IMG/VR virus record: IMGVR_UViG_3300025727_000005 | Length of the DNA: 64,000 nucleotides | DNA from: an uncultured virus (IMG/VR IMGVR_UViG_3300025727_000005) | Lineage: Duplodnaviria > Heunggongvirae > Uroviricota > Caudoviricetes | Direction: 5' to 3' (one strand) | Shown: positions 1 to 62,594 of the stretch, piece after piece | How positions within the stretch are numbered: the first letter of the stretch is position 1 | How the letters are laid out: each line of letters starts with the position of its first letter | Notes under the pieces: generated by a model | Databases searched by the model: none | What the model was told of the DNA's origin: nothing | What the model saw: the letters and a program-made list of their open reading frames with translations, nothing else | Program-made: the position numbers and the translations under genes

Positions 1-2
1 AT

Positions 3-33684: not shown

Positions 33685-35207
33685 GTGATATTTTAAGAAG
33701 CATACTCCCAGATGAGCCAAGAGGTGATGACCCTAAGCTCATGTTTCAAAACTACTGTTCTCTTAAGGAGTCTGTCTTACGCTTTGACTTACCCTCAGAA
33801 GTCAATGTGTTCGAGTATGTTGAGGACTTCACTCTCAAGCATGGTCATTTACCTTCGCAACAGGGAGTTAGAGAATACTTTGAAGAGAATCAATCCTTTG
33901 ATGAAGCAGATCGTATTCAACAGATCGCTAACCGACCAGTCTCTTATCGAGGTGACTTTGTATCCCTAATCGAAAGACGAGTTGAAGAAGGTCGGATGAC
34001 TAAGTTAGCTTCTGTTATGGCTGACGCTAAAGTCATCGCTCGTACAGGGCTTGAGGTTAAAGAAGGTCGGACAAAGAAGATCATTAAGGGTTCAAGGGAT
34101 GCGGGGAACTTCCTACTCAATGAGATTGCTAAGATAAACACCCCTACCTTTGGCTCTCGTATCGGGGGAGAAATCTTAGGTGATGGTGAAGACTTTTGGA
34201 ATGAGTATGAACGCACTTGTAATAAACAAACTGACATCCTCCCACAAACAGGGCTATCTATTATTGATAATGCTATCGGTGGGTTCAAGAGAAAAGAACT
34301 ATACATCATGGCGGCTTTTACAGGTCACCTTAAATCTACCTCAAGTTTAAATTGGGTTTACAATCAGTCTGTCTATGGAGGGACTGATACACTGTATTTC
34401 TCTCTTGAAATGCACTATACTCAATGTAGACGCATCATCTATGTCTATCATTCTATGCACCCTAAGTTCCGAGATAAGCGTATCGCTTTGGGTATACAGC
34501 AGGGTCAAACAGATGCAGGTATTGATCCAGACAAGATCAAAAAGGGAACACTTACAGAAGATGAGCGTTCTTACATGAGAGATGTCATTGAAGATCTCGA
34601 CAACGGTATGAAACAAGGAAATTATGGGTCAATCCACATTGAGGTTGCCGATCCCGATGTTCTTGACTTCACAGTTGAAAACATCCGTACTAGAGCCGAG
34701 CTACTTTATCAAAAGGCCCCTTTCAAGATGATGGTGGTAGACCATGCTTTATTGGTCTCCCCTCGTAAGTGGGTAGCGTCCACTACGGATCGGTTAAATG
34801 AGGTCATCAGAGATCTTAAAAAGACATCTCTTGGATTTAATCGTGGTGAAGGTATTCCTGTCTTATGTCTGTTTCAGATCAGTCGTGAGGGTTATAAGTC
34901 AGCCGAGAAAAACGGTGGGTCTTACAACCTCACTCACTTGAGTTATGCAAATGAAGCAGAGCGTTCTGCTGATCTTGTGATCTCAAGTTGGTATGGTGAT
35001 GATAAGCGTGAGAACAGTTTGGTTAAATACCAATGCCTCAAGTCTCGTGACCAAGCCCCCTTTGAAGAGTTTGACGCACAAATCGCTTGGCCTTATGGTC
35101 GTATCCTCGATATGCCTTTACAGTTCCAAACGAACACCTCTTATAAGAGCAAAGGTAAAAAGACTGAAGTGTTTGACGATCCTTTAGACGCTCTCATGGA
35201 TCTGTAA
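33681..35207 (+). CDS. dnaB: DnaB-like replicative helicase
   Basis: TGLSIIDNAIGG, AAFTGHLKST (Walker A variant), FSLEM, MVVDH, FQISR, ERSADLV, KSR. Confidence 0.85.
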   Translation: MSDILRSILPDEPRGDDPKLMFQNYCSLKESVLRFDLPSEVNVFEYVEDFTLKHGHLPSQQGVREYFEENQSFDEADRIQQIANRPVSYRGDFVSLIERRVEEGRMTKLASVMADAKVIARTGLEVKEGRTKKIIKGSRDAGNFLLNEIAKINTPTFGSRIGGEILGDGEDFWNEYERTCNKQTDILPQTGLSIIDNAIGGFKRKELYIMAAFTGHLKSTSSLNWVYNQSVYGGTDTLYFSLEMHYTQCRRIIYVYHSMHPKFRDKRIALGIQQGQTDAGIDPDKIKKGTLTEDERSYMRDVIEDLDNGMKQGNYGSIHIEVADPDVLDFTVENIRTRAELLYQKAPFKMMVVDHALLVSPRKWVASTTDRLNEVIRDLKKTSLGFNRGEGIPVLCLFQISREGYKSAEKNGGSYNLTHLSYANEAERSADLVISSWYGDDKRENSLVKYQCLKSRDQAPFEEFDAQIAWPYGRILDMPLQFQTNTSYKSKGKKTEVFDDPLDALMDL

Positions 35208-36427
35208 TGTTCTTTGAAATCGACAAACCTAAACTCCCACCCCTCAAGGAGCTGAACCTATTAGATAAGAACAACGAGTTCTCGATTCCGTCCGACCTGT
35301 GGGCTTCTATCTTAGACCAATACACGAAGCAAGAAATCATCGAGCATTTTTCGGATCTTATTGAGAACACTCCTGTGCCTTTCCCCTATAGAGTCTACGG
35401 TCTTGGAAATGTCCGTAAGGACTACCTAGAGCTTTGCTCTGATACAGTGAAATGGGAAGAAGAAAGATGGGAGGCACTAAGGACACCTAAAGACCTTCCT
35501 ATGCTCTATAAGGACAGGCCGATACACCTCGATTACATAAGTAAAAAAGGACTGTCTGTGTCGGATATGTTCACACAAGAAATACGAATGGAGTGTGGAC
35601 ATAAGTCAAGCCCATCGCCCACTCGACAATGGGATCGGGTTGGATATAAATCAAAAGTTAGACCCATCTTAAAAGTCTTGATGGGATTGAACTTAAGTAG
35701 AACACTGAGGAGTGGTGTGTATAAGACTGCCATGTTTGATTGCCTCCGACTTGGTAGGTACATGGCGAGTCAGTTTAAGCCCTCTTGTGCTAAAGCTATC
35801 TACGATTTCTTTGGTGCAAAGAAAGTGTTAGACTTCAGTGCTGGTTGGGGTGATAGGCTGGTTGGCTTTCATGCCTCTGATGCCGAGTCTTACATCGGCA
35901 TAGATCCAAATACTAGACTCCACATTCAGTATAAAAAGATCTCCTCATTCTGTAACACCGATAAGGAGGTTAGGTTCATCTGCTCTCCTGCTGAAGATGC
36001 AGACTTATCTGATGTTAAAGTAGACTTCATTTTTACAAGCCCTCCTTATTTTGATACCGAGAGATATAGCCAAGAAGGAACTCAGTCGTGGAAGAGATAC
36101 CCGACAATGAATGGATGGTTGAGTGGATTTCTTTACCCTACCCTCAATAAGAGTTGGGAAGCGTTAGAGGAAGGGGGTCGGATAGCAATCAATATAACTG
36201 ATGTTCTTGATGGGAGTCATTACTTAGAAATCATCAAACCGATGATTGAGTACATGGAGGGCTTAGGTGCTACTTATGAAGGAGTAGTCGGATATAGGAC
36301 GAAAAAGAGACCAGGCGAAAATCAAGGGATTGTTGGAGGGAGCGTGTTCTGCGAACCTATCTTCATTTGGTCTAAGGGGGAAGCTCTCGAACCTAAGTGG
36401 CATCAAGATAACTACTTCGGAGTTTGA
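35207..36427 (+). CDS. DNA amino-methyltransferase (m4C/m6A type), paralogue 1
   Basis: VLDFSAGWGDRL (SAM binding) and FTSPPYF (catalytic). Confidence 0.88.
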   Translation: MFFEIDKPKLPPLKELNLLDKNNEFSIPSDLWASILDQYTKQEIIEHFSDLIENTPVPFPYRVYGLGNVRKDYLELCSDTVKWEEERWEALRTPKDLPMLYKDRPIHLDYISKKGLSVSDMFTQEIRMECGHKSSPSPTRQWDRVGYKSKVRPILKVLMGLNLSRTLRSGVYKTAMFDCLRLGRYMASQFKPSCAKAIYDFFGAKKVLDFSAGWGDRLVGFHASDAESYIGIDPNTRLHIQYKKISSFCNTDKEVRFICSPAEDADLSDVKVDFIFTSPPYFDTERYSQEGTQSWKRYPTMNGWLSGFLYPTLNKSWEALEEGGRIAINITDVLDGSHYLEIIKPMIEYMEGLGATYEGVVGYRTKKRPGENQGIVGGSVFCEPIFIWSKGEALEPKWHQDNYFGV

Positions 36428-36524
36428 CTATGAGACTCATTTATACTGTAGCCTTTATAAGTACAATACCTGTAAAGAACGCAGGGAAAGCCTGCCTCAA
36501 TGCAGTCAATCTTTAGGAGAATGA

Positions 36525-37730
36525 ATGTTTTTTGATTATGAAAAAAAAGCCAAAGATAAGATAGACGAATATGAGGTTGTAAGAGGACAAGAGATCTTCA
36601 TACAACCTCATCAGTGGTCAGAGATGCTTGATAAGTTTACTCGTGATGAGATCATCACTTACTTATCAACTAAGATCGAAGGGATACCATTCCCATATAC
36701 TAAATATACTCCTCAAGAGGTGCATCGTGATTGGTTAGATGTTCAGTCCGACTATATGACACCAGTGGCAGGAGAGTGGGGATTACCTCGATGTCAGTTA
36801 GAGGATGCTCATACTTACAAAGGTAGGTATCTTTACTTCGCACCTAATAACAAAGGACTCAAAGTCTCTAATCAGTTCACCGAGTTCGCAAGAGTATTAG
36901 TAGACCATCGAGAATATAAAAGTGCCATGACTCAATGGACTCGAATAGGTATGAAGGGCGATAAGAGATACTTCCTTAGACCCTTTTTCACCCTATACGA
37001 CAGGTCTAAAGGGGTTAATAGGAAAATGCTCTTTAACGCTATAAATATGTCTTATTACATACCTGCTCAGTTCAAACCAACACTCTCCAAAGCCATGTAT
37101 AACTTCTTCGGGGCAAAGAAGGTCTTAGATTTCTCTATGGGATGGGGTGATAGGCTAGTTGGTTTCCTCGCTTCTGACGCTCTGTCGTATGTTGGTATTG
37201 ACCCTAATACAAAACTCCATGAGCCTTATGGACAAATAGATTCGTACTGTAATGCAAACAAAGAAACTAAGTTCATTTGTTCTCCAGCTGAGGATGCTGA
37301 CCTAACTGATGTTAAAGTAGACTTTATCTTCACAAGCCCTCCTTACTTTGATACCGAGAAGTATAGCCAAGAAGATACTCAGAGTTGGAAGAGATACCCC
37401 AAAACAGATGACTGGCTCAATGGATTTCTTTACCCGACACTCAAGAAATGTTGGGAGGTATTAGAAGACGGAGGACGGATCTGCGTCAATATCTCAGACA
37501 AGGTTTATGGTGATATACGAGTATGCCAACCCATGATTGAATACATGGAGTCATTAGGTGCTACTTACGAGGGAGTGATTGGTTATAGGATGTCCAAGAG
37601 ACCAGGAAATCACCATTCATTGAACGAGGATCTGTCTAAGGTAAGTGTTTTTTGCGAACCTATTTTCATTTGGAGTAAGGGAGAAGCCCCCGAACCTAAA
37701 TGGAATCAAGATAACTTCTTTGGGGTATAA
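36525..37730 (+). CDS. DNA amino-methyltransferase, paralogue 2
   Basis: VLDFSMGWGDRL, FTSPPYF. Confidence 0.88.
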   Translation: MFFDYEKKAKDKIDEYEVVRGQEIFIQPHQWSEMLDKFTRDEIITYLSTKIEGIPFPYTKYTPQEVHRDWLDVQSDYMTPVAGEWGLPRCQLEDAHTYKGRYLYFAPNNKGLKVSNQFTEFARVLVDHREYKSAMTQWTRIGMKGDKRYFLRPFFTLYDRSKGVNRKMLFNAINMSYYIPAQFKPTLSKAMYNFFGAKKVLDFSMGWGDRLVGFLASDALSYVGIDPNTKLHEPYGQIDSYCNANKETKFICSPAEDADLTDVKVDFIFTSPPYFDTEKYSQEDTQSWKRYPKTDDWLNGFLYPTLKKCWEVLEDGGRICVNISDKVYGDIRVCQPMIEYMESLGATYEGVIGYRMSKRPGNHHSLNEDLSKVSVFCEPIFIWSKGEAPEPKWNQDNFFGV

Positions 37731-37759
37731 TCCTATAAGGGTCTTGAAAGGATTTAAGT

Positions 37760-38992
37760 ATGTTCTTTGATTATGAAAAAACCAAAAAAGAGAACCTTGA
37801 AGAGTATGAGGTTTTGAGAGGGAATGAGATCTTTATCCCACCCCATCAGTGGCTAGAGATGGTAGATAGTTTTAGTAGAGATGAGATCACTGATTATCTG
37901 TCTGCAAAGATTGAAGATTTACCTTACCCCTTCACTAAGTACACACCACAAGAGATCAAGAAAGATTGGTTAGAGGTTCAGTCCGATTACATGATCCCGA
38001 TTGAGGGTGCTTGGGGATTGCCACGATGTCAGTTAGACGAAGACCATACTTACAAAGGTAGGTATATTTACTTCGCACCTAATAACAAAGGACTCAAAGT
38101 CTCTAATCAATATAGTGAACCTATGCGTTTAGAGGTAGACCATAAGCAGTTCCCAAGTGCAATGAGACAATGGACACGAACTAACCTCAAGTCCAAAAAG
38201 AGAGCGTTCCTTAGACCTTTATGGACATTGTATGATCCGTCAAAAGGTGTGAACAGCAAGATACTTGTAAACGCTATCGGTATGTCTGGTTATATCCCAG
38301 CACAGTTCAAACCTACTTTAGCTAAGGCGATGTATAACTTCTTCGGGGCTAAAAGAGTATTGGATTTCTCTATGGGATGGGGCGATAGATTAGTTGGATT
38401 CCTATCTTCTGATGCCGAGTCCTATGTAGGATTAGACCCTAATACAAAACTCCATGAGCCTTATCAGAAGATCGCTGATTATTGTTCTACGAGTAAGACC
38501 ACTAGGTTCATCTGCTCTCCTGCCGAAGATGCAGACCTGTCTGATGTTAAAGTAGACTTCGTTTTCACGAGTCCACCTTATTTCGACACCGAGAAATATA
38601 GTCAGGAGGAGACTCAATCATGGAAGCGTTATCCAGAGACTGATGATTGGCTGAATGGGTTTCTTTACCCAACCCTCAAGAAATGTTGGGATTGCTTAGA
38701 AGAGGGAGGGAGGATATGCGTAAACATCTCTGATAAAGTCAGAGGAAACATACGAGTGTGTCAGCCCATGATTGAGTATATGGAGTCATTAGGTGCTACT
38801 TATGAAGGCGTGATTGGTTATCGGATGGCAAAGAGGCCAGGAAACCACCACTCTTTAAATGATGAGTTGTCCAAGATGGATGTTTTCTGTGAGCCGATTT
38901 TCATTTGGAGTAAGGGAGAAGCCCCCGAACCTAAATGGAATCAAGATACTTACTTTGGGGTGTGTGAGGTCGGTCATGTGGGGAAACCTTGA
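37760..38992 (+). CDS. DNA amino-methyltransferase, paralogue 3
   Basis: VLDFSMGWGDRL, FTSPPYF; closely similar to paralogue 2. Confidence 0.88.
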   Translation: MFFDYEKTKKENLEEYEVLRGNEIFIPPHQWLEMVDSFSRDEITDYLSAKIEDLPYPFTKYTPQEIKKDWLEVQSDYMIPIEGAWGLPRCQLDEDHTYKGRYIYFAPNNKGLKVSNQYSEPMRLEVDHKQFPSAMRQWTRTNLKSKKRAFLRPLWTLYDPSKGVNSKILVNAIGMSGYIPAQFKPTLAKAMYNFFGAKRVLDFSMGWGDRLVGFLSSDAESYVGLDPNTKLHEPYQKIADYCSTSKTTRFICSPAEDADLSDVKVDFVFTSPPYFDTEKYSQEETQSWKRYPETDDWLNGFLYPTLKKCWDCLEEGGRICVNISDKVRGNIRVCQPMIEYMESLGATYEGVIGYRMAKRPGNHHSLNDELSKMDVFCEPIFIWSKGEAPEPKWNQDTYFGVCEVGHVGKP

Positions 38993-39902
38993 TGTATCTA
39001 ACTTAGATGTATTGACTCCATACATCGAGTCTGCTTTAGAGAGAAATCTCCTGTATTACAATCTCAACCCTTTTGAATTCCTAGCCTTTAAAACAAAAGG
39101 CAACTTGTTCAAGATTGAAAACAATACCTTACATTTTGGTTGGCATGGTGTAATCGGAGCGAGGTTCTTAAAGCTCTACTTCCCCCCTATTCACTTATAC
39201 GGTGATGAAGAGATTGAAAGGGAATCTGTTTTAAAAGCTACAAATGAGGGATGCTCTTTGTGGATCGAAAAGGAGCACTCGAAGGCTTTAGGTGTCAAAG
39301 CCAAAACTATCTCGGAGTATCGAGGAGCTTATCAGCCCATATACCATAGAGACTATCAACTAGCGGGTAAGAAATATAAAAATATGAGGAGAGATAGAAA
39401 TATCCTCCATTCTCTCATTGAGAGTGGTGAGTTAGAGTTTGTATTTGACTACCCCTTAAAAGGTCTTACAGGACTCAATAATGCTTGGCTAAGTCAGACT
39501 GGTCGTAAAAGGTCTGTGTTTGACTTTTGTCTTCAGAACGAAAAGCACCTCACACACAGGATCAAAAACCTAACCCTACTTAACAGAGATGGTGAGCCTA
39601 TCACATCCTCTCTGTACGCTATATATTCACCAGATAAATGGCATTGTATAGGTGCGATCTCGGACTATGGGAAGATACCTATTGGTGGGTTGCAAAGACA
39701 GTCTGATCTGTATCTGTTTGAGTTGGAGGAAAAAGTCAACTTAGTGATGGTTGGTGGGTATAGCTATAAAGAGCTGAAGTTCTCTAAATTGGCATTACCA
39801 CACAGTGTTTATAGGTTAGGCACACTACCTTCCAATATAACTGTGACCAAAGATATATGGGAGTCCTTTAGACCGAAGCCTCAGACCTATTTTGGAGTGT
39901 GA
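38976..39902 (+). CDS. DUF2156/MprF-C-terminal-like (GNAT-fold, aa-tRNA-type) transferase 1
   Basis: start MWGNL (GAGGT RBS); PIY..YQLAGKKYKNMRRDRN and GG...ELKFSKLALP resemble DUF2156 motifs. Confidence 0.5.
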   Translation: MWGNLDVSNLDVLTPYIESALERNLLYYNLNPFEFLAFKTKGNLFKIENNTLHFGWHGVIGARFLKLYFPPIHLYGDEEIERESVLKATNEGCSLWIEKEHSKALGVKAKTISEYRGAYQPIYHRDYQLAGKKYKNMRRDRNILHSLIESGELEFVFDYPLKGLTGLNNAWLSQTGRKRSVFDFCLQNEKHLTHRIKNLTLLNRDGEPITSSLYAIYSPDKWHCIGAISDYGKIPIGGLQRQSDLYLFELEEKVNLVMVGGYSYKELKFSKLALPHSVYRLGTLPSNITVTKDIWESFRPKPQTYFGV

Positions 39903-39903
39903 A

Positions 39904-40827
39904 ATGTGGAACTACCTAACCCCCAAAGACTTTGAGACATTGATACCTTACTTAAAGAGTGCAATACAACGAGGGTGGAAGTATTACGATCTCTGTGTGA
40001 TAGATCGTATGTGGTGTTATAATAATCAAATCCTCTTCAAGATAGAGAACGACATATTATATGTGTCTAGGTTGCACCGCTTCATTAATAACTTAATCCA
40101 TAAGATGCAGTTCCCTCCAATCCACTTGTACGGTGATGAGGAACTTGAAAAGAAAGCCTTGCTAGGAGCTTTGGAAATAGGTGTGTCCGTAAACGCCACA
40201 AAGCAAGTCGCAAAAGACCTCGGATTAAAATACACCTTAATGAGTCAATGGGATGGTGGGTGTGAAGTGGTCTATACAAAAGACCATCTCAAAATGGACG
40301 GTAAAAAATATGCAAAGCGAAGAGGTGAGTTAAACAAAATCAAAAGGTTGATTTCTAGCGGTCAACTCATGGTCAAACTCGATAGTGATTTAGATTCTTT
40401 GTACGGTCTGTTTCAAACATGGAAAAGGCAACAAGGGTACAAAACAGGGATGTATGAATACCTCCTTAAAAACAAAGAATACTTACCCTACTTAAAAGTC
40501 TTTAGTGTGCGTAACTCTGATAAGGTAGTGTTTGCATCTGTGTTCCTAAACATCGACAAATCGACTTGGATTTCCCCTTGCTCAATGACGGATTATGAAA
40601 ATACAGTTAGTGGGTTTCAAAGACTCTCTAAGATCCTCCTGTTAGATATGCAGGAAGATTTAGAAACGATCATCGAAGGTGGGTGGGTCACAGAAGAAAT
40701 CAAAAGAGGAAAGACATTGATCCCTCACGAGATATGGAGGATCGCTAAAATCATAAGCCCCAAAAAGCTCTCGAAGATTGAGTGGGAGAGTTTTAAGCCA
40801 AAACCGAATACCTACTTTGGAGTTTAA
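39904..40827 (+). CDS. DUF2156/MprF-C-terminal-like transferase 2
   Basis: start MWNYL; paralogue of previous (FPPIHLYGDEE shared); VVY...LKMDGKKYAKRRGELN. Confidence 0.5.
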   Translation: MWNYLTPKDFETLIPYLKSAIQRGWKYYDLCVIDRMWCYNNQILFKIENDILYVSRLHRFINNLIHKMQFPPIHLYGDEELEKKALLGALEIGVSVNATKQVAKDLGLKYTLMSQWDGGCEVVYTKDHLKMDGKKYAKRRGELNKIKRLISSGQLMVKLDSDLDSLYGLFQTWKRQQGYKTGMYEYLLKNKEYLPYLKVFSVRNSDKVVFASVFLNIDKSTWISPCSMTDYENTVSGFQRLSKILLLDMQEDLETIIEGGWVTEEIKRGKTLIPHEIWRIAKIISPKKLSKIEWESFKPKPNTYFGV

Positions 40828-40828
40828 T

Positions 40829-42841
40829 ATGTTATTTGAAACAACATTCAACGCTGAGAGTTTCTACAAGAAGTTTACACCAATCTTAAAAGAGATCTCT
40901 GTACCAGAAAACTTAGTGCCGTTTGCAGAGTGCTTATCCGAGTATCACGAACTAGACTTAGATATTTCCGTTGAGCCTAAAGTATTTGTAGATCCACAAG
41001 ATGGTGGCGACCAAAAAAAAGCCATCGTTCTTTTATCTGGAGGGATTGATAGTGCTTGGTGTCTCTTATGGGCTTTAGAACAAGGTCTGAATCCACAACC
41101 TTTATTTGTGGATGGGCTGAACGCTTCTCAAAACTCTCGTGAGCGTAAAGCTGTCCAAGTCTTATGTGATAAGCTAGACCTGCCCCTCATCACATATAAA
41201 CACCCAACCCATCTCAAAAAGCTACATAAAGATCCGTCTAATATATTCAAGATACCAGAGAGCTTTGTGAAACTACAGTATGCTCTGATGGCAATCAAAG
41301 ATGACATACGAAAAGAGGGCATAGCAGGGGTCATTGTCACCTGCCCTACTAACCAACCCGAATACATTGACCCTACTGCACCTAAGAAAGAAAATGGGGA
41401 ACCGCTGACATGGTTTCAAGACTCAGAAGAGTCTATGGAAACTTTCTTACCGTTCCTCTCCGATTATATTGGGTGGGGTTTTAAAGGATACTACCCTGTC
41501 ACCATGAAAGAGCAGAAGATAAAAGCTCTAATGGACAAAGGGATCTTTGAAGATACCTGCTCGTGCGTATGCAATCCTATGTTCTTTTCGGGTCATCGTA
41601 AGAGATCAAAACCCAAGTATTCCAATATGTGCGGCGTGTGTTGGAAGTGCAAAGAAAACCTAGCTTTCATCAGTAAACTTAACCGAGATGATGAAGTCGT
41701 TGAAGATGAGATGCCAGAAGAGCCTCAAATGAAACCTTGGCAAAAAGGATATGAGTTAGATTATCTTAAAAGCGTAGAGGGTCAGTTCAACGCTTTTAAT
41801 GACCTGTGTATTTCCCCATTCCTACAGATGAAAAAAAATAAAGTCGCAGACCACTTACACGATGGCACTTTAATCCTTAAAGACGGATTTAGGTGCATCC
41901 TTAAAAAGTCTAAAACTAGAACGAGTATAAAAGTGTACTCGAATAGGGATCACACCCTCGCTTATAAAGATGTAGGCGAGTTCGCTATGGGTAAGTTAGT
42001 CATTGATGATGTGAGTGAGTTTAAAGAATACTGCGATAAGATTGATCAGAACATTTGGGTCATCAGCTTTGACTCGATTGAGAAAGATCTTCTCTCATGC
42101 GGGTTTGTTAAGCTAGGATATAAATACACCTCCTTTGGTGATGATCTCACTGTGTTCCTTTTGCAAAAGCAAATCGACTTTTTCGGTACGAACACAAATA
42201 GACTAATCTTTAATGACCCTTTAGAAAGAGCTACCTGTGTGAAACTCGACTCCAACTTTGAGGTTGAGTCCATCGCAGATAAGTTAGCCGCTTACGAATT
42301 TAAGAAGCACTACTCCAACTACAATAGTGGTGGGTGGTCAGCTATCAGTCTAAGAGGGTTTAGCGATGACCCCTCCTTCATTATCAAACCAGAAGAGATG
42401 AATGATAAATGGACGGAGCAAAACTCAGAGACAGATTTCTATCTGAGAGACACCGAAGCGTATGAATATTTTAGCGAGGTAAGGGAGATCATAAACACAG
42501 TCGCCCCAAACCAAAAGATCGAGAGGGTGAGAATAATGAAGCTCTCTGAAGGATCTGAGATTAAAAAGCATACTGATCTAGTAGATCCAGATTGTGGTGT
42601 CGGGGTAGGAGAAACAGCAAGGTTTCATGTGCCGATTAAAACAAAAGATGCTGTCTTTGAGGTATGGGGACAAAATGGTAAAGAGTCATTCTCTTTAGAG
42701 AAGGGTTCTCTATGGTATCTCGACACAAGAAAACCACACCGAGTCATTAACCCAACCAGCGATAGATACCATCTTGTTTTTGATGTCTTTGTTGATCAAG
42801 AAATAAGAGAACTTATCAAGAGATGCTTAAATGTTCTTTGA
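40829..42841 (+). CDS. QueC-like PP-loop ATPase fused to Asp/Asn-hydroxylase-like 2OG-Fe(II) oxygenase
   Basis: start MLFETTF; LLSGGIDSA; TCSC...CGVCWKC; C-terminal GWSAISL, RVRIMKL, IKKHTD, RFHVPI, LDTRKPHRVIN. Confidence 0.75.
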   Translation: MLFETTFNAESFYKKFTPILKEISVPENLVPFAECLSEYHELDLDISVEPKVFVDPQDGGDQKKAIVLLSGGIDSAWCLLWALEQGLNPQPLFVDGLNASQNSRERKAVQVLCDKLDLPLITYKHPTHLKKLHKDPSNIFKIPESFVKLQYALMAIKDDIRKEGIAGVIVTCPTNQPEYIDPTAPKKENGEPLTWFQDSEESMETFLPFLSDYIGWGFKGYYPVTMKEQKIKALMDKGIFEDTCSCVCNPMFFSGHRKRSKPKYSNMCGVCWKCKENLAFISKLNRDDEVVEDEMPEEPQMKPWQKGYELDYLKSVEGQFNAFNDLCISPFLQMKKNKVADHLHDGTLILKDGFRCILKKSKTRTSIKVYSNRDHTLAYKDVGEFAMGKLVIDDVSEFKEYCDKIDQNIWVISFDSIEKDLLSCGFVKLGYKYTSFGDDLTVFLLQKQIDFFGTNTNRLIFNDPLERATCVKLDSNFEVESIADKLAAYEFKKHYSNYNSGGWSAISLRGFSDDPSFIIKPEEMNDKWTEQNSETDFYLRDTEAYEYFSEVREIINTVAPNQKIERVRIMKLSEGSEIKKHTDLVDPDCGVGVGETARFHVPIKTKDAVFEVWGQNGKESFSLEKGSLWYLDTRKPHRVINPTSDRYHLVFDVFVDQEIRELIKRCLNVL

Positions 42842-44006
42842 ATATAAGACTGAACTTAACTCACTAGACGACATTGAATATATTAAAGATGGCTATCTTC
42901 ACATACGCCCTAACGAATGGAGTATGCTTCGTGAGAAATATACTAAGGAAGATATCAAAGACCATATCGCACCCATCGTTGAGTCTTTACCTTATCCTTA
43001 CTCTGAGTACACAACGGAGTCTGCAAAGAAGGACTTCATAAGCCTCAAAGCGAAAAAAGAGCCATTCGTATTTGATGAATGGGTAGCACCACGCCAAGCT
43101 ACTCCCCTAGAGACTACTTATCTAGGTAAGCACATTTACCTCAACAGCTATTACAAAGGTAAAGAGGTGTCTAACCTGTTCACTCAAGAACAGAGGATGA
43201 AATGTAGCTATCGCACACAAGGTAACTCACCTTATGACGAATGGGTCAACGCTAGTAAGAATAACTCGTTCCTACGATGCTTCTTCGGTATCTGTGAAAA
43301 TGACATTTATGAGAGGGGTGGGGTCAATAAACAAACCCTTAGAAGAGCATTGAAGATGCACACATATATGGCTAGTCAGTTCAAAGCTGAGTCTGCTAAA
43401 GCTCTCTATGATCTGTTCCAATCTAAAAGCGTCTTAGATTTCTCAGCAGGTTGGGGTGATAGGTTAGTAGGCTTCCTAGCTTCAAATGCCGACTCCTATA
43501 TTGGGATTGATCCTAATACTAAGCTCCATGAACCATATCAGCAAATCGTCAACCTCTGTGATACAGGTAAAGAGGTTAGGTTTATTTGCTCACCTGCTGA
43601 AAATGCTGACCTCTCTGATGTCAAAGTAGACTTTATCTTTACGAGCCCACCATACTTTGACATCGAAAGGTACAGTACAGAGTCCACACAATCATGGAAG
43701 CGATACCCAGACCTTAAGGATTGGGTCAATGATTTCTTACTCGCTACCCTCACCAAGTGCTGGTCTGCACTTAAAGATGGTGGCCGGATAGCCATCAACA
43801 TTGCGGATAAAAAAGGAGAGGACATCTGCACTCCTATGCTTGAACACATGAAGAATTTAGGGGCTACATATGAAGGGGTGATAGGATATCGAATGTCTGA
43901 GCGTGGTGGTCAGAAAACAGATTGCCCTACTTGTGAGCCGATCTTTATTTGGAGTAAGGGTTTAACACCCGAACCTAAATGGAATTATAATGAGTATTTT
44001 TTTTGA
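42831..44006 (+). CDS. DNA amino-methyltransferase, paralogue 4
   Basis: VLDFSAGWGDRL, FTSPPYF. Confidence 0.88.
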   Translation: MFFEYKTELNSLDDIEYIKDGYLHIRPNEWSMLREKYTKEDIKDHIAPIVESLPYPYSEYTTESAKKDFISLKAKKEPFVFDEWVAPRQATPLETTYLGKHIYLNSYYKGKEVSNLFTQEQRMKCSYRTQGNSPYDEWVNASKNNSFLRCFFGICENDIYERGGVNKQTLRRALKMHTYMASQFKAESAKALYDLFQSKSVLDFSAGWGDRLVGFLASNADSYIGIDPNTKLHEPYQQIVNLCDTGKEVRFICSPAENADLSDVKVDFIFTSPPYFDIERYSTESTQSWKRYPDLKDWVNDFLLATLTKCWSALKDGGRIAINIADKKGEDICTPMLEHMKNLGATYEGVIGYRMSERGGQKTDCPTCEPIFIWSKGLTPEPKWNYNEYFF

Positions 44007-44015
44007 AGAGGTGTT

Positions 44016-45143
44016 ATGCAGTTATTTAACTACAAAAAAATAGGAGGTCAGACCCTTAAATCAAAAGTGGTCTTAGATCCTGTCGTTGAAAAAGTAGCAA
44101 GTGAGTCCGACTATAAGTTCAATGGTGAAACTTCATTTGTTGTACCTGAGTTTGATGTTCCTCCCGACTTCACATTAGGAGTGATATATGGGCCGAGTGG
44201 TTCGGGTAAGTCTACCCTCTTAAAAGAATTCGGAGAAGAAGCTGTTGGAGCATGGGATCAATCTTTAGCTATAGCTTCTCAAGTAGACCCAAACCTACTC
44301 TTGAGACTCGGATTATCGTCTATCCCCTCTCTTTGCAGACCATATCATGTCTTAAGCACAGGTGAGAAACATAGAGCTGATATAGCTAAAAACCTAACAA
44401 ATGGATGTGTCATAGATGAGTTCACTTCTGTGTGTAATCGAGACTTCGCTCAATCAATCTCTGTGGGACTGAGGAAAGTCATAGATCATTACGGATATAA
44501 AAATGTGGTCATCGCTACCTGCCACGAAGATGTCATAAATTGGTTAGAACCAGATTGGGTTGCTAACACATTAACGAGGCGGCTCGTAGAAGGGAGGTCG
44601 GAAAGGCGATCTTCAACTTTTAGAGTTCTACCTTGCTCAGTCGAAGTCTGGTCAATCTTCAGCGACCATCATTATCTGAGTGGAGATCTCAACAAGGGTG
44701 CTCATTGTTGGCTACTCATCAACGAAAATAATACAATCTGTGGCTTCATGTCTGCGATTGCATTACCAGGAGGGAATGTACGCAATGCTTGGAGAACACA
44801 TCGAACAGTAATCTTACCCGACTTTCAAGGTATGGGATTAGGGTCAAGACTGTCTAATGCTATAGCTAAGATGTACTACGATAAAGGATGTCGATTCTTC
44901 GGTAAAACTGCACACCCAAAGCTCGGTGAACATCGAAACAACTCTGAACTATGGAAACCCACAAGGAATAATAGAGTCAGCAACAAGAGTATGTCCTATG
45001 AAAAAATGAAGGACTCCAAATACTCTAAAAAGTTTCTGCAAAAGCACAACAATAGAGTATGTTATGCACATGAATATATTGGCGATGGAACTATGAACTT
45101 GAAAGGTCAAGAGCCAAAAAAAGAGCATACTCCATTCTTTTGA
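44016..45143 (+). CDS. ABC-type ATPase fused to GNAT acetyltransferase
   Basis: GPSGSGKST, LSTGE, IDEFTS, ATCH; then FSDHHYL and HRTVILPDFQGMGLG (acetyl-CoA motif A). Confidence 0.85.
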   Translation: MQLFNYKKIGGQTLKSKVVLDPVVEKVASESDYKFNGETSFVVPEFDVPPDFTLGVIYGPSGSGKSTLLKEFGEEAVGAWDQSLAIASQVDPNLLLRLGLSSIPSLCRPYHVLSTGEKHRADIAKNLTNGCVIDEFTSVCNRDFAQSISVGLRKVIDHYGYKNVVIATCHEDVINWLEPDWVANTLTRRLVEGRSERRSSTFRVLPCSVEVWSIFSDHHYLSGDLNKGAHCWLLINENNTICGFMSAIALPGGNVRNAWRTHRTVILPDFQGMGLGSRLSNAIAKMYYDKGCRFFGKTAHPKLGEHRNNSELWKPTRNNRVSNKSMSYEKMKDSKYSKKFLQKHNNRVCYAHEYIGDGTMNLKGQEPKKEHTPFF

Positions 45144-45158
45144 TTTCTTATAACCATA

Positions 45159-45521
45159 GTGAGGAGTGAGACTATGAGTTTAGAAGAACTACTAAAAAGA
45201 AATCGGGTGCAACTGCAAAAGAAGCAGGGCGACTATCTGTACTTCATCCAGTCAAGCAAAACAGGGATGATAAAGATAGGTCGATCTAAACACCCTAAGA
45301 AGAGACTCAAACAACTTCAAACAGGGAACTCAAATACGCTCCGTATTATCGCCTCATTTGAAGGTTTAGGGTGGAGGGAACCCCACCTACACGAAGACCT
45401 CAAAAAGTGGCGTATACGCCAAAATGGAGAGTGGTTTCACCATGATTGTGTCGGGTCGATCCCTACTGATCTATATGAGATGATCGAATGGGGAGCGTTT
45501 GATGACTGGTGGAAACCTTAA
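45159..45521 (+). CDS. GIY-YIG (T5orf172/MUG113-like) domain protein
   Basis: YLYFIQ...IKIGRS..PKKRLKQLQTGN...LH...GEWF. Confidence 0.8.
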   Translation: MRSETMSLEELLKRNRVQLQKKQGDYLYFIQSSKTGMIKIGRSKHPKKRLKQLQTGNSNTLRIIASFEGLGWREPHLHEDLKKWRIRQNGEWFHHDCVGSIPTDLYEMIEWGAFDDWWKP

Positions 45522-45538
45522 CGAGTAAAAAGAAACTA

Positions 45539-45685
45539 TTAACAATGATCCTCTTCTATTAAAGGTTGCGAATCTATCTTTCTCAACATCTCCTTTGGGT
45601 CAAGCTCATCAACAGAAGAATTATTCTGCGAGATTGACCCACAAGAGAAAAGAAAAAAGAGGAATAAAGAAAAAAGAAGTCTCAT
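45539..45685 (-). CDS. 48-aa putative lipoprotein (not in ORF track)
   Basis: MRLLFSLFLFFLFSCGSISQ...; promoter motif 42 nt upstream. Confidence 0.55.
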   Translation of the reverse strand: MRLLFSLFLFFLFSCGSISQNNSSVDELDPKEMLRKIDSQPLIEEDHC

Positions 45686-45726
45686 GTGTTGTACCCTAAC
45701 TTATTATCAATATCTCTAAAAAAGGG

Positions 45727-45741
45727 TATAAAGAAACTACA
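45727..45741 (-). promoter_or_regulatory. putative late promoter (TGTAGTTTCTTTATA)
   Basis: identical to 46235-46249. Confidence 0.6.
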
Positions 45742-45775
45742 AATCCTCGTCATATTCCTGTTGAGCGAGGATTAA
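45742..45775 (-). repeat. 34-bp third copy of actin-like gene 3' end; hairpin (possible terminator)
   Basis: aatcctcgtcatattcctgttgagcgaggattaa identical to 46254-46287 and 46864-46897; aatcctcg/cgaggatt inverted repeat. Confidence 0.85.
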
Positions 45776-46188
45776 GCCTCTTTTACTTCAATCTCTTTAT
45801 GGTCATAGATAACTTGGAAAGTCATCTTATGAACATAATTTTCAACCCCAAAAAGTTGAAGTTTTCTGGGTCTATCCATCGTACACTTAACCTCAACTAT
45901 TAGATCCCCAGCAAGATTAATAGATCGATACCCAAGAACTTTAATGTCTAAGTCGTCTGGTGTGTCTTCGGGAATATCAAAATCAAAAAAACCCTCGATG
46001 CCCAAGAAAAAGTCATATAAAGCGTCTTCTACCCAGTTTGATCTAACTCTTGACCCCGATAGTTTGCTTAAATCTTTTGCTATCGTGGTGGATAGGCTCT
46101 TGAGGGTTTCTTCCCGACTTGATTGTTTTTCAAGTCTAGCGATTCTTGACTCAAGGTTACGGATAATTTCACTAGCTGATCTTCTCAT
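45772..46188 (-). CDS. MRRSASE-leader protein 4
   Basis: MRRSASEIIRNLESRIARLEKQS. Confidence 0.85.
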   Translation of the reverse strand: MRRSASEIIRNLESRIARLEKQSSREETLKSLSTTIAKDLSKLSGSRVRSNWVEDALYDFFLGIEGFFDFDIPEDTPDDLDIKVLGYRSINLAGDLIVEVKCTMDRPRKLQLFGVENYVHKMTFQVIYDHKEIEVKEA

Positions 46189-46234
46189 GGTTTACTCCAG
46201 TGGTTTAAGGTTAATGAGATCACTTATGAGAAGA

Positions 46235-46249
46235 TATAAAGAAACTACA
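46235..46249 (-). promoter_or_regulatory. putative late promoter (TGTAGTTTCTTTATA)
   Basis: 47 nt upstream of leader ATG. Confidence 0.6.
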
Positions 46250-46251
46250 AA

Positions 46252-46387
46252 TCAATCCTCGTCATATTCCTGTTGAGCGAGGATTAACATACCCTTAGAG
46301 ACAGCGTGAAGCGGGTCAGAAGCATGACGAACCTCTGAGATCTCGATAGGGGAACGCTTTTTCTTAGTCTCAAAGACCTCCCTAAAG
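46252..46387 (-). pseudogene. 136-bp duplicate of the 3' end of the actin-like gene
   Basis: matches 46862-46997 with 6 substitutions (5 synonymous, 1 F>S). Confidence 0.9.
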
Positions 46388-46397
46388 TTATTATTTT

Positions 46398-46787
46398 TTA
46401 ACCAACAATGACAGTGTTAGGTCGATCAACCATGTTTGTTTGATACCTGTCCATTAACTCCGCATCAGTATCGAGGATGGCTTTGTTAATTTCTACTTCA
46501 ACGCAAAAATGCACTTTGCTTGACGAGATTGTCTTTACATTAGAGACAATACCCATTTGCCGAAGGTTTACCATATCAGACATGAAAGAGGAAACTGCTG
46601 ATTTTAGAGTAGATGGATAAAGGTGCGTGAAGCAATACTCATTAGCATGGGAGTTAAAATTCATTAAAATAACACATTCATCTCCGTCAATTATTCTGGT
46701 ATTGTATGCCGCAGTTTTACTTTTACCTTCAAGTCGTGCGATCCTAGACTCAAGATTTCTGATTACTTCACTAGCTGATCTTTTCAT
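46398..46787 (-). CDS. MRRSASE-leader protein 5
   Basis: start moved to MKRSASEVIRNLESRIARLEGKSKTA; GGAG RBS. Confidence 0.85.
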   Translation of the reverse strand: MKRSASEVIRNLESRIARLEGKSKTAAYNTRIIDGDECVILMNFNSHANEYCFTHLYPSTLKSAVSSFMSDMVNLRQMGIVSNVKTISSSKVHFCVEVEINKAILDTDAELMDRYQTNMVDRPNTVIVG

Positions 46788-46834
46788 TATAGTTCTCCAT
46801 TTTGTTAAGGTTAAAGAGATCACTTAAGACCAAT

Positions 46835-46850
46835 TATAAATAAACTATTA
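46835..46850 (-). promoter_or_regulatory. putative late promoter (TAATAGTTTATTTATA)
   Basis: consensus copy 48 nt upstream of leader ATG. Confidence 0.65.
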
Positions 46851-46861
46851 ACCTTGACAGC

Positions 46862-47863
46862 TCAATCCTCGTCATATTCCTGTTGAGCGAGGATTAACAT
46901 ACCCTTAGAGACAGCATGGAGAGGGTCTGACGCATGACGAACCTCTGAGATCTCGATAGGGAAACGCTTTTTCTTAGTCTCAAAGACCTCCCTAAAGAAG
47001 TCCATGAATCCACCTGCGAGACTTGTACCACCACCCACTACGATTGGAATGGGTTTGTTAAGGGTGAGGTGTCCACCTTTCATCACAAACTGCTGTGCGA
47101 TGTTATCTAAAGCGTGTTCAATAAGAGCCTTATAATAGAACGAGATCGCTTCTTCTTCTCTATTCTTAGGTGCTTTAAGGTCAATGCCCTTCTCTTTTAC
47201 CGCACACATTTTAGAAGCTGTTGCACCTACTGATCGAGCCGCTCCTTGATCAATCCAATCACCACCACGAGCAACGGAGAAGGATAACCCCTCAATGGTG
47301 CTGATAGCGAGAGCGATATTGGTCATACCAGAACCGAAACTAATCCCGACACCAGAAAAACCTTCCTTTGCAGTCTCTGCGAAGACGATAGCCATAGCTT
47401 CGTTGGCGGGGTGTGCAGTATATCCACATTCTTGAACGATGCGAGTGAATACACCCTTATGATAAACAACATCCATATTAGCGTCCACAGGAGCCGCAGG
47501 GATTGAGAAATAACAATGCTCTCCCTCATGGCTAGGGTCACCGAGAACATCTTTGACCATATGTCCGAGAACGGTAAGGGAGTCGATCTCATCAGCAGAG
47601 ATAAGACCTGCTTTAAGGGGTCTACGACCTTCTCTACCGAACATATTAGCTACTTCCATAGCTTCATCCCCAAGTACAAGTAGATTGTCGTCAGCTTCGA
47701 TGTATGACACCGAGCCGAGTTTGAGCATCTTTTTAGCCGAAGATGGGAGATCAATAAAGAGGTCACGCATCCTTCTTAGAGTTACTTCATTTTTCTTAGC
47801 ACCACTCATGCGAGCAGACACCAAGTTCATAGTTCCAATGTCAAGTCCTACACCTTTACTCAT
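46862..47863 (-). CDS. actin-like ATPase (MreB/MamK/FtsA superfamily)
   Basis: GLDIGTMN (phosphate 1), NEAMA (connect 1), GISFGSGMTN (phosphate 2), ARGGDWID, VVGGGTS (adenosine). Confidence 0.85.
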   Translation of the reverse strand: MSKGVGLDIGTMNLVSARMSGAKKNEVTLRRMRDLFIDLPSSAKKMLKLGSVSYIEADDNLLVLGDEAMEVANMFGREGRRPLKAGLISADEIDSLTVLGHMVKDVLGDPSHEGEHCYFSIPAAPVDANMDVVYHKGVFTRIVQECGYTAHPANEAMAIVFAETAKEGFSGVGISFGSGMTNIALAISTIEGLSFSVARGGDWIDQGAARSVGATASKMCAVKEKGIDLKAPKNREEEAISFYYKALIEHALDNIAQQFVMKGGHLTLNKPIPIVVGGGTSLAGGFMDFFREVFETKKKRFPIEISEVRHASDPLHAVSKGMLILAQQEYDED

Positions 47864-48528
47864 TGTTTATTTGCCTTTCTTAATGCTTTCAAAGCAGAGA
47901 GAGCATCCGAGAGTTCTTCAGAACCTTCGGATTTTGTTTCATTCGCCAGAGACTCTGAGGAGGCTATGGTCTTATTAGAGATAATGTTAGATGGGATAAA
48001 GGTCAATCCTTCATCGGCTGTTGTGTTCATATTACCCATAGGTTGATTGCTTTGAGCGTTATTGTTCACGACAACCTGTTGAGTGGGCATCTGTTTAGCG
48101 ACAGCTTCAGCGATAGCTTCGGGAGAGATCATTGTCCCTAACTGTTGGATAAGGATATTAGCAAGAGCGTTCATGTCTAATTGTGGTTGCTCTGTTTGTT
48201 TCTCTACAATCACTTCCTTTTCTACTATCACTTCCTTTTCGACTATCACTTCCTTTTCGACTATCTTCTCAACCACTACAGGTCTTACTTCTTTAACTAC
48301 CTTTGACTCATGAATGATTTTAAATCTGTTATTGCTGTTTACCCCTAGTCGAGAGGGAGATGGATTGCCTTTAACCTTGAGAGCGATCAATCCTGTGTTG
48401 ACTAAAGTCTTTAGTTCTTGGTTTGAGTCATATTGGGATTTAGTGCAATCAAAGGTCTGCCCTTGTTTGAACTTGAGTCGAAGACTCTTAATCTCTATAT
48501 CTTTAAGGCACTGTGCTACATAAATCAT
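47860..48528 (-). CDS. hypothetical protein with IVEKEV repeats
   Basis: ATGA coupled on both sides; 18-bp tandem repeat at ~48200-48275. Confidence 0.7.
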   Translation of the reverse strand: MIYVAQCLKDIEIKSLRLKFKQGQTFDCTKSQYDSNQELKTLVNTGLIALKVKGNPSPSRLGVNSNNRFKIIHESKVVKEVRPVVVEKIVEKEVIVEKEVIVEKEVIVEKQTEQPQLDMNALANILIQQLGTMISPEAIAEAVAKQMPTQQVVVNNNAQSNQPMGNMNTTADEGLTFIPSNIISNKTIASSESLANETKSEGSEELSDALSALKALRKANKQ

Positions 48529-49097
48529 TGTTCGCCCTTGCTCATACTTTTAGTAAGAAAGAAAGTAGCCTTTCGTATAGCTTTTATTCTACCCTTCTCA
48601 ATCCCTTGCTCGATGAAGTTAAACTTATAAACTGATGGGTGTATCCATTTGTTTTCTGTTCTAAGAGGAAGATTTCTGAAAACTACTTCACCTGTTTTTG
48701 TCTTAATAGGTACGACCTTCCTTTCCATGTTAGAGTTACGAGTCAACCACCTCATTTCATAAGGATCTTTGCGTTCAAGATACTTTTTGACCCATTGCCA
48801 CTCTGACTTGATCTTGATCGCCCCCCCTTTAGATATCTCATAATAAAAGGAGTCTAGGAAATCTTTGGTGCGAGGAATACCACTGCCGAGTCCTGATGCT
48901 CTTTTCGCTTCCTCTTTGATTGCCTTTATTATCTCATCCCCGAAGATCTCTATGACCTTTTTAGAGATGTCTTTGCCTCTTAGGTCAACATTCTGGAACT
49001 GATTTTTACGCACCTTATAAGTACGGAGATCCCAAGGTCTATTTGGATCTCTGTTCTTTGGTGGGTTTCTTCGTGCTCGTCTAGGGTCAAACTTCAT
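48525..49097 (-). CDS. basic hypothetical protein (possibly neck/tail completion)
   Basis: GGAGGTG RBS; promoter motif at 49127-49140. Confidence 0.6.
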   Translation of the reverse strand: MKFDPRRARRNPPKNRDPNRPWDLRTYKVRKNQFQNVDLRGKDISKKVIEIFGDEIIKAIKEEAKRASGLGSGIPRTKDFLDSFYYEISKGGAIKIKSEWQWVKKYLERKDPYEMRWLTRNSNMERKVVPIKTKTGEVVFRNLPLRTENKWIHPSVYKFNFIEQGIEKGRIKAIRKATFFLTKSMSKGEQ

Positions 49098-51931: not shown

Positions 51932-51984
51932 CTTGTTTTCAAGTCGTGCTATTCTTGATTCGAGTCTGAAGCTGATCTTTTCAT
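51923..51984 (-). pseudogene. empty, frameshifted MRRSASE-leader cassette
   Basis: ATG AAA AGA TCA GCT TCA GA, a 13-nt deletion, then CTC GAA TCA AGA ATA GCA CGA CTT GAA AAC AAG (LESRIARLENK); no cargo. Confidence 0.85.
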
Positions 51985-60669: not shown

Positions 60670-61716
60670 TTACCCCCTGTTTAGATATGAAGAAGCAACA
60701 CGACTAGCCCTGCGTTTATTGATGTCTCTTAATACGAGATCGACCACGCTTAGTTGAGCCGATGGTTTGACATTGGGCAACAGACCTGCAATCTCAATCG
60801 CTAACTCTTTTCTCGACAACCCGCTTTGAGCGAGGTTTAAGATTTGAGATACCTGTTCATCTGAAACATCTGTCTCTGACTGCAAGCAAGGCAGTAAGGA
60901 AGCCATTTTAGAGGTTGTTGAGGGTAAGTGTCTGATGATCTCTGGGAATGTGGAGATACCTTTACAAGTACGGATTAAGTCAGCCCCCTCAAACAAGAAC
61001 GCAGTACATTCTCCTTGAGCGTTCTTTTCAAAATCAAGGGAATACTGTCCAACACCTGGAACTGAGACTTTGTAAACAAGATATATCCCGTCCACATCTG
61101 CTTTACATGACCACTTATCAAGCATGGTCATGTAGCCTAAGTGCTTCACACTTGATACGATCTCTTTTACAGAGCTTACAAAGTCATCTCTAGTAGCCAT
61201 GATTTGTCTCCCATCTTCTGTTATTTCACGCTCAATCATAAGAGCAGGTCTGCGAACTAAGTAGTTAGGCCACTTCTCGTACCACTTAGCATAGAAGTCA
61301 TCTTCGGAGACTTCACGAGTGGTCTTGTCGGGGTTGGGTAGATTCGGGTCAGCCACATGAACTACATAGCTTCCTTTTTCACCTGTAACATCAAAGATCA
61401 AACTAGCATGACTCCAATCCCTACCTTCGGGATTCCATGCAATAAGTACAGGCTTACCCTCATCTGTCCACGCTTTTACTTGGGTCAAAGTAGCTGGTGT
61501 AGTGAGGGTAGCTCGACACCCAAAATACTGAGCACAAGCTAAGACTTCTTCCCACCTAGCCCCTTGCATAGGTTTTGCACCAATCACTTGATTGACTTGA
61601 TCCTCGTTGCACTTAACGCCAACAGCATTTAGAGCCATACAGGTGGAGGTCGCCACACAACTAAACTGTGAACGCTGTCGTATTGGGCTCACATCTGCTT
61701 TTGCTGATCTTCTCAT
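60670..61716 (-). CDS. C39-like papain-fold cysteine peptidase with truncated MRRSA leader
   Basis: QRSQFSCVAT (Q/C), WSHASLI (H), VADP (D); C-terminal RRASRVASSY. Confidence 0.8.
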   Translation of the reverse strand: MRRSAKADVSPIRQRSQFSCVATSTCMALNAVGVKCNEDQVNQVIGAKPMQGARWEEVLACAQYFGCRATLTTPATLTQVKAWTDEGKPVLIAWNPEGRDWSHASLIFDVTGEKGSYVVHVADPNLPNPDKTTREVSEDDFYAKWYEKWPNYLVRRPALMIEREITEDGRQIMATRDDFVSSVKEIVSSVKHLGYMTMLDKWSCKADVDGIYLVYKVSVPGVGQYSLDFEKNAQGECTAFLFEGADLIRTCKGISTFPEIIRHLPSTTSKMASLLPCLQSETDVSDEQVSQILNLAQSGLSRKELAIEIAGLLPNVKPSAQLSVVDLVLRDINKRRASRVASSYLNRG

Positions 61717-62541: not shown

Positions 62542-62578
62542 AAGTGTTCTCCATTGATTTAGGTTAGTTAAGATCTAG

Positions 62579-62594
62579 TATAATGAAACTATTA
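62579..62594 (-). promoter_or_regulatory. putative late promoter (TAATAGTTTCATTATA)
   Basis: overlaps stop codon of 62592 gene. Confidence 0.6.

Follow-up and report, generated by a model that had tools for sequence, protein, structure and literature searches.

The window analysed here comprises 64,000 nucleotides (nt) of DNA from an uncultured virus (IMG/VR record IMGVR_UViG_3300025727_000005; Caudoviricetes) and is part of a viral record of 116,106 bases. On its minus strand, a gene for an actin-like protein is followed by two small genes, termed leader genes 5 and 4, each of which is in turn followed by a copy of the 3' end of the actin gene. Leader genes belong to a family whose members share only an N-terminal leader of about 20 residues (MRRSASEIIRNLESRIARLE) and often also a promoter/untranslated-leader module of about 110 nt. 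Comparison with related phages indicates that such genes are probably stacked and exchanged when related phages co-infect a cell and recombine homologously; this would proceed via the hairpin-promoter unit found at the gene joints and via the leader sequence. One of the actin-end copies appears to be the relic of a different functional actin allele. The elements of the locus are listed from the actin gene downwards.

46862-47863, minus: gene for the actin-like protein (333 amino acids; Pfam Volactin PF25216), conserved anchor of the locus
46862-46997, minus: copy 1, the working actin-gene end (last 136 bases, stop codon included)
46864-46897, minus: hairpin 1, 34 nt (exact triple repeat, fold)
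46788-46861, minus: predicted promoter module A, with conserved untranslated leader and ribosome site of gene 5
46835-46847, minus: motif TAGTTTATTTATA in module A, predicted promoter
46398-46787, minus: leader gene 5 (129 amino acids)
46388-46397, minus: junction J1, 10 AT-rich bases between the gene-5 stop and the actin-end relic
46252-46387, minus: copy 2, non-coding, 136 nt, apparently the relic of another actin allele
46254-46287, minus: hairpin 2, inside copy 2
46189-46251, minus: predicted promoter module B (motif at 46235-46247) and untranslated leader of gene 4
45772-46188, minus: leader gene 4 (138 amino acids)
45742-45775, minus: copy 3, which is hairpin 3, the 34-nt core only
45686-45741, minus: predicted promoter module B' (motif at 45727-45739) with a different, leaderless 5' region
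45539-45685, minus: open reading frame (ORF) of 48 codons, predicted small lipoprotein (signal-peptide-like start, FSCG)
45526-45543, minus: orphan promoter-like motif directly after the lipoprotein stop, facing the end of the convergent gene
45159-45521, plus: T5orf172 (GIY-YIG-like) gene, convergent, bordering the array on its far side (Pfam PF10544, E value 2.6e-9)

All elements of this repeat layout that had been described in the initial annotation were found in place on the minus strand. The long repeat extends over 141 nt (46857-46997 and again 46247-46387; 94% identity), and within the 136 coding bases copy 2 differs from copy 1 at six positions (95.6% identity). The 34-nt core is present in three mismatch-free copies, matches to which were obtained in none of 100 shuffled sequences, and the stop codon TAA of gene 4 sits within hairpin 3. 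The promoter motif after copies 2 and 3 is the same, as also noted earlier; it reads TGTAGTTTCTTTATA and is separated from either copy by three bases.

Alleles of the locus in related phages

Twenty loci related to the actin locus were found among viral contigs. In the relatives the slot after the actin gene holds no gene, one gene or two genes. The following arrangements were found there, given with the nucleotide identity of the actin gene to that of the window's phage; Y denotes a single orthologous leader gene.

L003, 93.7%: promoter, Y
L004 (= L078), 88.0%: promoter, Y
L005, 86.2%: promoter and Y, followed by a further ORF that has a leader-like start
L075, 88.4% (97.6% to L078): promoter, gene 5, J1, relic, promoter, Y
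L082, 87.1%: scar made up solely of the decayed remains of a promoter and a leader start, followed by the next conserved gene
L081, 86.9%: unrelated gene of 152 amino acids, then a second hairpin copy

The order actin gene, promoter, Y is present in three lineages and is the ancestral arrangement. L075 has an L078-like backbone in which the segment promoter, gene 5, J1 and actin-end relic is inserted before Y. When identity was followed in 100-nt windows beyond the actin end, that of L075 to L078 collapsed while that to the window's phage rose to 96-98%. Between L075 and the window's phage, identity is 87.8% in the actin gene, 98.3% in the gene-5 leader, 97.1% in the relic and 81% in the next promoter; the body of gene 5 is patchy (89.9% overall, near 97% in its 3' half), identity from this 3' half through the relic is 96-98% against about 88% for the backbones, and both ends of the shared block lie within promoter modules. 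These segment identities imply that the gene-5 cassette with its attached relic moved between backbones that differ by about 12%. The actin end of L075 is identical to that of L082 in all 136 bases, and the two diverge directly after hairpin and stop codon. Judged by these comparisons, the working actin end of L075 is the resident allele and the distal relic the foreign one. In L081, the second hairpin copy starts at the same base (TTAATCC) as copy 3.

Additional copies of the actin end were found only in the window's phage, L075 and L081; two complete relatives have one each. Outside the window's phage the body of gene 5 was encountered only in L075, while the body of gene 4, apart from weak matches of 36-38%, and the 48-codon lipoprotein-like ORF are confined to the window's phage. 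The array had been proposed to be expandable and its cassettes to carry their own version of the gene end. Both proposals are borne out by the relatives: the aligned locus shows empty, differently filled and doubly filled alleles, with inserted and stacked cassettes, and the gene-5 cassette is joined to the same J1 and relic in the window's phage and in L075.

Proposed acquisition and exchange of the cassettes

The 34-nt core folds as a hairpin with a stem of 8-10 base pairs (AATCCTCG/CGAGGATT) plus three further pairs, and hairpin 1 covers the last 11 codons of the actin gene and the first base (T) of its stop codon. Folds of 66 nt around copies 1, 2 and 3 had energies of -15.9, -16.5 and -19.9 kcal/mol (z scores of -1.8, -2.5 and -3.9, respectively). 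Across nine distinct sequences 91.5% of the cells were paired, and two pairs were changed on both sides. At all three copies the motif TAGTTTMTTTATA follows within 3-13 nt of the hairpin, so that a composite of stem-loop and promoter-like element occupies the gene joints. The promoter motif was found at 18 sites (6.5 expected) and a word of the untranslated leader at three (0.02 expected); sigma-70-like sites were no commoner than in shuffled sequence (six found, 7.2 expected), and an Rfam scan of 45000-48000 gave no match. The hairpin is likely to be a terminator and the motif after each hairpin a phage promoter. This hairpin occurs only three times in the record, while the promoter/leader module is a widespread repeat: it is common to 7 of the record's 14 leader genes, including gene 5, and the other leader arrays repeat only this 5' module.

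Substrates for homologous recombination would be (i) the hairpin, (ii) the promoter motif, (iii) the conserved untranslated leader and (iv) the first 60 coding bases. J1 would have arisen once, by an unequal (illegitimate) crossover between two phages: the sequence flanking gene 5 on its 3' side in one of them would thereby have been linked to the actin gene of the other, 136 bases ahead of the stop codon. Such a join would have provided the gene-5 cassette with actin-end and promoter homology on both sides, and ordinary recombination could therefore carry the cassette into different backbones. Further genes could then be added downstream of it, and the hairpin-plus-promoter units would make each small gene a separate transcription unit. 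Excision through the direct repeats is plausible, though none was seen in the k = 31 unitigs. A leader-gene remnant at 51949-51984 (minus), in which promoter and untranslated leader are intact and a deletion of about 20 nt in the leader leaves an ORF of 11 codons, looks like a deletion scar of the kind seen in L082.

Several observations weigh against exchange by homologous recombination or against one of its components: (i) at the foot of the hairpin, the junctions of gene 4 in the window's phage and of the 152-amino-acid gene in L081 coincide to the base, no similarity being detectable upstream of either, and neither simple homologous recombination nor a random illegitimate event would lead one to expect so exact a boundary; it could fit a structure-directed step, or trimming under selection for the terminator; (ii) no parental single-cassette form of gene 4 was found; (iii) no recombination event or intermediate was observed in unitigs (k = 31) of public marine runs, and such unitigs are blind to crossovers within the final 55 bases, where copies 1 and 2 are identical; (iv) the order of the two cassettes rests on three assembled records and on L075, which likewise has gene 5 directly after the actin gene, because k = 31 unitigs cannot phase an exact repeat of 34 nt; (v) the covariation of the hairpin is modest and confounded by coding constraint, its score being reached by 21 of 500 shuffles; (vi) a scan for consensus terminators made no call at the hairpins, and copy 1 is without a U-run; (vii) the role proposed below for the leader is accompanied by no family match, since none of 70 leader proteins, whose bodies are unrelated, reached a Pfam cut-off; (viii) the T4 prohead protease family PF03420 was not detected in the two complete relatives, in a search whose controls were equally silent.

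A homing nuclease may contribute to the exchange. In such co-conversion, a free-standing GIY-YIG/T5orf172 enzyme encoded next to the array would cut relatives that do not have its gene, and in the course of repair these would receive the nuclease gene along with adjacent cassettes, a process that may be combined with homologous recombination as outlined above. Genes of this type adjoin leader arrays in three places and could stimulate recombination there: the T5orf172 gene at the far edge of the array (45159-45521, plus), which is a candidate homing-type nuclease gene; a GIY-YIG gene at 79140-79484 of G000 (plus), convergent on another leader tandem; and, in L010/L011, a gene with a GIY-YIG-like motif, read from its translation, right after a leader gene. 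However, neither cut site nor nuclease activity is known, no nuclease gene is seen in the block shared with L075, the contig of which ends, and such small nuclease genes are common in large phages. As an explanation of the locus co-conversion is unlikely.

Distinctly improbable is a site-specific capture resembling that of integrons or att sites, in which the hairpin would serve as an attC-like site for a phage recombinase that inserts cassettes at the actin 3' end or removes them from there. It would account for the termination of each cassette in a hairpin, for the shared base of the two hairpin-foot junctions without upstream similarity, and for the divergence of L075 and L082 directly after the hairpin. 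Yet the hairpin, read from its sequence, is without a GTTRRRY-type core, every cassette has its own (predicted) promoter, and graded similarity extends beyond the repeats into promoter and leader. The initial annotation had advocated an att-like reconstitution of the gene, a proposal that did not hold. Instead of flanking core repeats of equal length, repeats of 141 nt and 34 nt were found, and instead of an incoming copy that completes the gene and displaces the native end, the reverse was seen in L075, with its foreign relic and resident working end. Moreover, neither PF00589 nor PF00239, representing integrases and resolvases, was matched in the 116-kb record, and no tRNA gene was detected in the window. 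The best PF00589 matches in two complete relatives are weak and lie 70-130 kb from the actin genes; the corresponding tyrosine-recombinase-like frames scored 25.4 bits (28 with frame neighbours) and 20.2 bits against a cut-off of 27.1. Each of these borderline matches falls in one long frame far from actin (G001, 62279-62695, 491 amino acids; G002, 85081-85515, 454 amino acids). A bolder version of site-specific capture, highly improbable, would make the actin-end hairpin the structure-specific docking site of an unrecognised recombinase or nuclease and the locus a phage 'integron' that collects a leader-tagged, capsid-loaded and injected arsenal; if it were true, the two same-base junctions at the hairpin foot would be its signature.

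The relic itself bears on a further alternative. In this scenario the actin end would have been duplicated in place inside a single genome, its spare copy would then have decayed neutrally, and the second gene would have been replaced at a later stage. Five of the six differences between copy 2 and the working end are synonymous in the actin frame, the sixth changing phenylalanine to serine, and the peptide RHASDPLHAV is kept, in agreement with the initial count. Under random substitution, at least five synonymous changes in six have a probability of 0.002-0.007; a hand estimate that also allows synonymous change in the working copy gave about 0.02. A neutral spare copy should have gained mostly non-synonymous changes. 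Each of the five synonymous variants is present in some natural actin allele of the relatives. The relic of L075 shows no amino-acid change; it differs from that of the window's phage at four sites and keeps the codon TTC (phenylalanine), which places the change to serine later, in the window's relic. In a tree of the 136 nt, the relics fall among the 'KKKR' alleles (window's phage, L003, L076 and L081), and the L075 relic lies outside a supported clade (95/99) that contains L075's own actin end; it differs from that end at 13 positions and from the window's alleles at only 4-8. Duplication-born tandem arrays of paralogs do exist in relatives, for example upstream of actin in L006. Because of the synonymous bias, the natural occurrence of the variants and the tree position of the relics, duplication in place with neutral decay was rejected as scarcely credible. 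The comparison thus supports, as had been surmised earlier, the derivation of copy 2 from a different functional actin allele rather than from a decayed in-place duplicate. In L006 (a 312-kb relative, positions 1-6000), at least five tandem paralogous leader genes precede the actin gene and stem from whole-gene duplication, a dynamic that differs from the stacking of unrelated cassettes in the window's phage. A -1 frameshift fusing gene 5 to the relic, whose frame is open from 10 codons upstream, was considered and dismissed as no slippery site was seen before the stop codon.

The structure of the locus was further checked in assemblies and sequencing runs. Three records are 100% identical at the locus, the 116-kb record and IMG/VR contigs of 173 kb and 107 kb. 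Twenty public marine runs from 13 named studies (four further rows name no study) carry at least 54% of the sampled words. J1 was bridged without mismatch by unitigs in seven of eight independent marine runs (4/4, then 3/4), the bridging unitig measuring 421 nt (258 nt in one run), and a unitig of 536 nt in runs X5 and X6 extends from within copy 3 across gene 4 and reaches copy 2. A unitig that was placed on copy 2 with eight differences (runs X10, X14 and X16) agrees with the actin allele of L003 at the seven differences listed and is probably the working actin gene of an L003-like relative. The unitig joints 46258>46809, 45811>46127 and 46192>46794 were not accepted as deletion variants, given that their short sides comprise 23-30 letters in repeated promoter/leader sequence. 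A chimeric assembly of co-occurring strains, named initially as the outcome that would overturn the structure, has next to no chance of being the explanation: the repeats do exceed the unitig word size and several relatives do share samples, as illustrated by the L003-like alleles in those three runs, but the three records agree, the runs that bridge J1 differ in study and year, and the same J1 recurs in L075, a phage diverged by 12%.

The leader family and the surroundings of the array

Leader genes 5 and 4 share the sequence MxRSASE.IRNLESRIARLE. Leader genes start in the window at 10289, 10862, 12874, 46188, 46787, 50623, 52489 and 62541 (all minus). With a profile of the first 32 residues, 17 matches were obtained in the 116-kb record, 31 in a complete relative of 375,691 bases and 27 in a complete relative of 312,136 bases; in each of these two relatives they are concentrated around the actin gene. 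The leader is conserved at the protein level, as serine is encoded by AGT or TCA in different paralogs. It was modelled as a long N-terminal helix with a predicted local distance difference test (pLDDT) score of 87-93. Our best guess, drawn by analogy, is that the leader is a virion- or capsid-targeting tag on about 30 otherwise unrelated small proteins per genome; a capsid targeting sequence of T4 and identical N-termini of SPN3US paralogs are described in extracts of PMC3012670 and PMC5694885.

Similarity searches with individual members yielded little. Y has a conserved C-terminal domain (PHROG 9437), and its body also occurs without leader in proteins of 98-101 amino acids; its model reached a pLDDT of 92.3. 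Comparison of the Y profile with PDB sequences gave nothing better than an E value of 0.017, and Foldseek comparison of the Y model with PDB gave no significant match (best E value 0.14). Genes 4 and 5 had no match in PHROGs; a protein atlas offered nothing usable for gene 4, and its leads for gene 5 were all sub-threshold. The 32-residue leader matched nothing in GenBank phage records at an E value of 0.1.

Two further genes concern the leader. At 72674-73975 of G000 (minus, outside the window), an ORF of 433 amino acids has a second, internal leader near 73040-73108 and looks like two leader genes fused in tandem. A protein of 348 amino acids (60670-61716, minus) weakly matches Peptidase_C39_2, and its N-terminus, MRRSA, corresponds to the first five leader residues; its gene lies just downstream of three leader or variant-leader genes (61780-62541, 62592-63506 and 63539-64654), and it may be a processing protease.

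The actin-like protein matches Volactin PF25216 over its full length and above the curated cut-off (E value 5e-75; 253 bits, cut-off 35; residues 5-326 on profile positions 3-321 of 321). The Volactin family is named after an archaeal cell-shape protein. Marine giant phages encode an actin homologue of this family (46862-47863); among GenBank phage records, a Volactin homologue was found only in two uncultured huge phages, LR745208.1 (60.7%) and LR756511.1 (31.7%). In close relatives the actin gene is always preceded on its 5' side by genes for proteins of 222 and 190 amino acids (47860-49097, minus), neither of which had a match in PHROGs. The 222-amino-acid gene overlaps the actin start, contains an 18-nt tandem repeat (48200-48265) encoding repeated EKEVIV, and specifies a basic helix-like tail, ALKALRKANKQ; its product may act together with the actin-like protein, as a partner or adaptor.

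At the other end of the array, the orphan motif at 45526-45543 had a local score of 26, equal to the top of 1000 shuffles (reached by 0.1%), and is possibly a fourth remnant; the end of the lipoprotein gene shows a similarity to the hairpin's 3' arm that is borderline relative to chance. Beyond the convergent gene lies a DNA-modification island (35207-45143, plus) with four paralogs of about 400 amino acids that match N6/N4 methylases (one below the Pfam cut-off), a QueC-like/Asp-Arg-hydroxylase fusion of 687 amino acids, and a GNAT plus P-loop protein (PHROG 11143). Since this flank is absent from the fetched loci of the relatives, with the exception of two same-phage records, the array sits at a break in gene order. 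The window's phage is myovirus-like (Baseplate_J and a weak sheath-initiator match); CheckV completeness of the 116,106-base record is 37%, and relatives reach 312-375 kb.

Comparison with known systems

The locus keeps successive stages side by side in natural relatives, that is, a scar, a single gene, a cassette inserted along with its junction, and a stack of two genes; gene gain is rarely this plain among phage loci. One non-homologous join would have created a portable cassette with homology on both sides. If the leader proteins are packaged like the internal proteins (IPs) of T4, some 30 of them per genome would represent a large pool of candidate host-takeover or anti-defence proteins, and the leader could be tested as a tag for packaging foreign proteins. 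A limited literature search on promoter-early stem-loop (PeSL) cassettes, capsid targeting sequence and volactin yielded nothing on this phage group.

The closest parallel is provided by the PeSL cassettes of T4-type phages (Arbiol et al. 2010, PMC2839356; Comeau et al. 2014, PMC4122927). As far as the extracts of these papers go, (i) small, functionally uncharacterised genes within a variable region have a unit of stem-loop and promoter at their flanks, (ii) gain, loss and replacement between close relatives map to the units, as they do here between L075 and L078, L082 or the window's phage and between L003 and the window's phage, and (iii) each gene has its own regulation, with no dedicated recombinase evident. 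The PeSLs of RB49 and phi1, according to the same extracts, are unrelated to the present elements in sequence: polyG/polyC (GGGG/CCCC) stems are not found here, and the motif is not sigma-70-like. Further differences are that the stem-loop of the window's phage lies inside the coding end of a conserved core gene, that one cassette carries another 102 bases of this core gene as a relic, that the hairpin occurs only three times in the record, and that the group consists of marine, uncultured phages with genomes above 300 kb rather than of T4-type phages. The locus is an analogue of PeSLs and not a homologous member; modular shuffling of this type, described from T4-type coliphages, is thereby extended to marine phages that are uncultured and exceed 300 kb in genome size.

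The IP loci of T-even phages are likewise highly variable and flanked by promoter and stem-loop elements (extracts of PMC2839356), and their unrelated small proteins share only a short N-terminal leader (extracts of PMC2839356, PMC3012670 and PMC5694885). In contrast to these, the leader of the window's phage comprises about 20 residues of unrelated sequence and is found 27-31 times per complete genome in several arrays instead of at two small loci.

With integrons the locus has in common that single-gene cassettes, each ending in a hairpin, are stacked downstream of a fixed anchor; it differs from them by the lack of an adjacent integrase and of a conserved attC core, by the predicted promoters within the cassettes and by the unequal repeats. 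Finally, J1 resembles the accretion of morons in the Hendrix model of mosaicism by illegitimate recombination, discussed in extracts of PMC2839356, in that a single non-homologous join would have added a gene with its own promoter. Unlike in moron accretion, later movement of the cassette would use the flanking homology that this very join had made.

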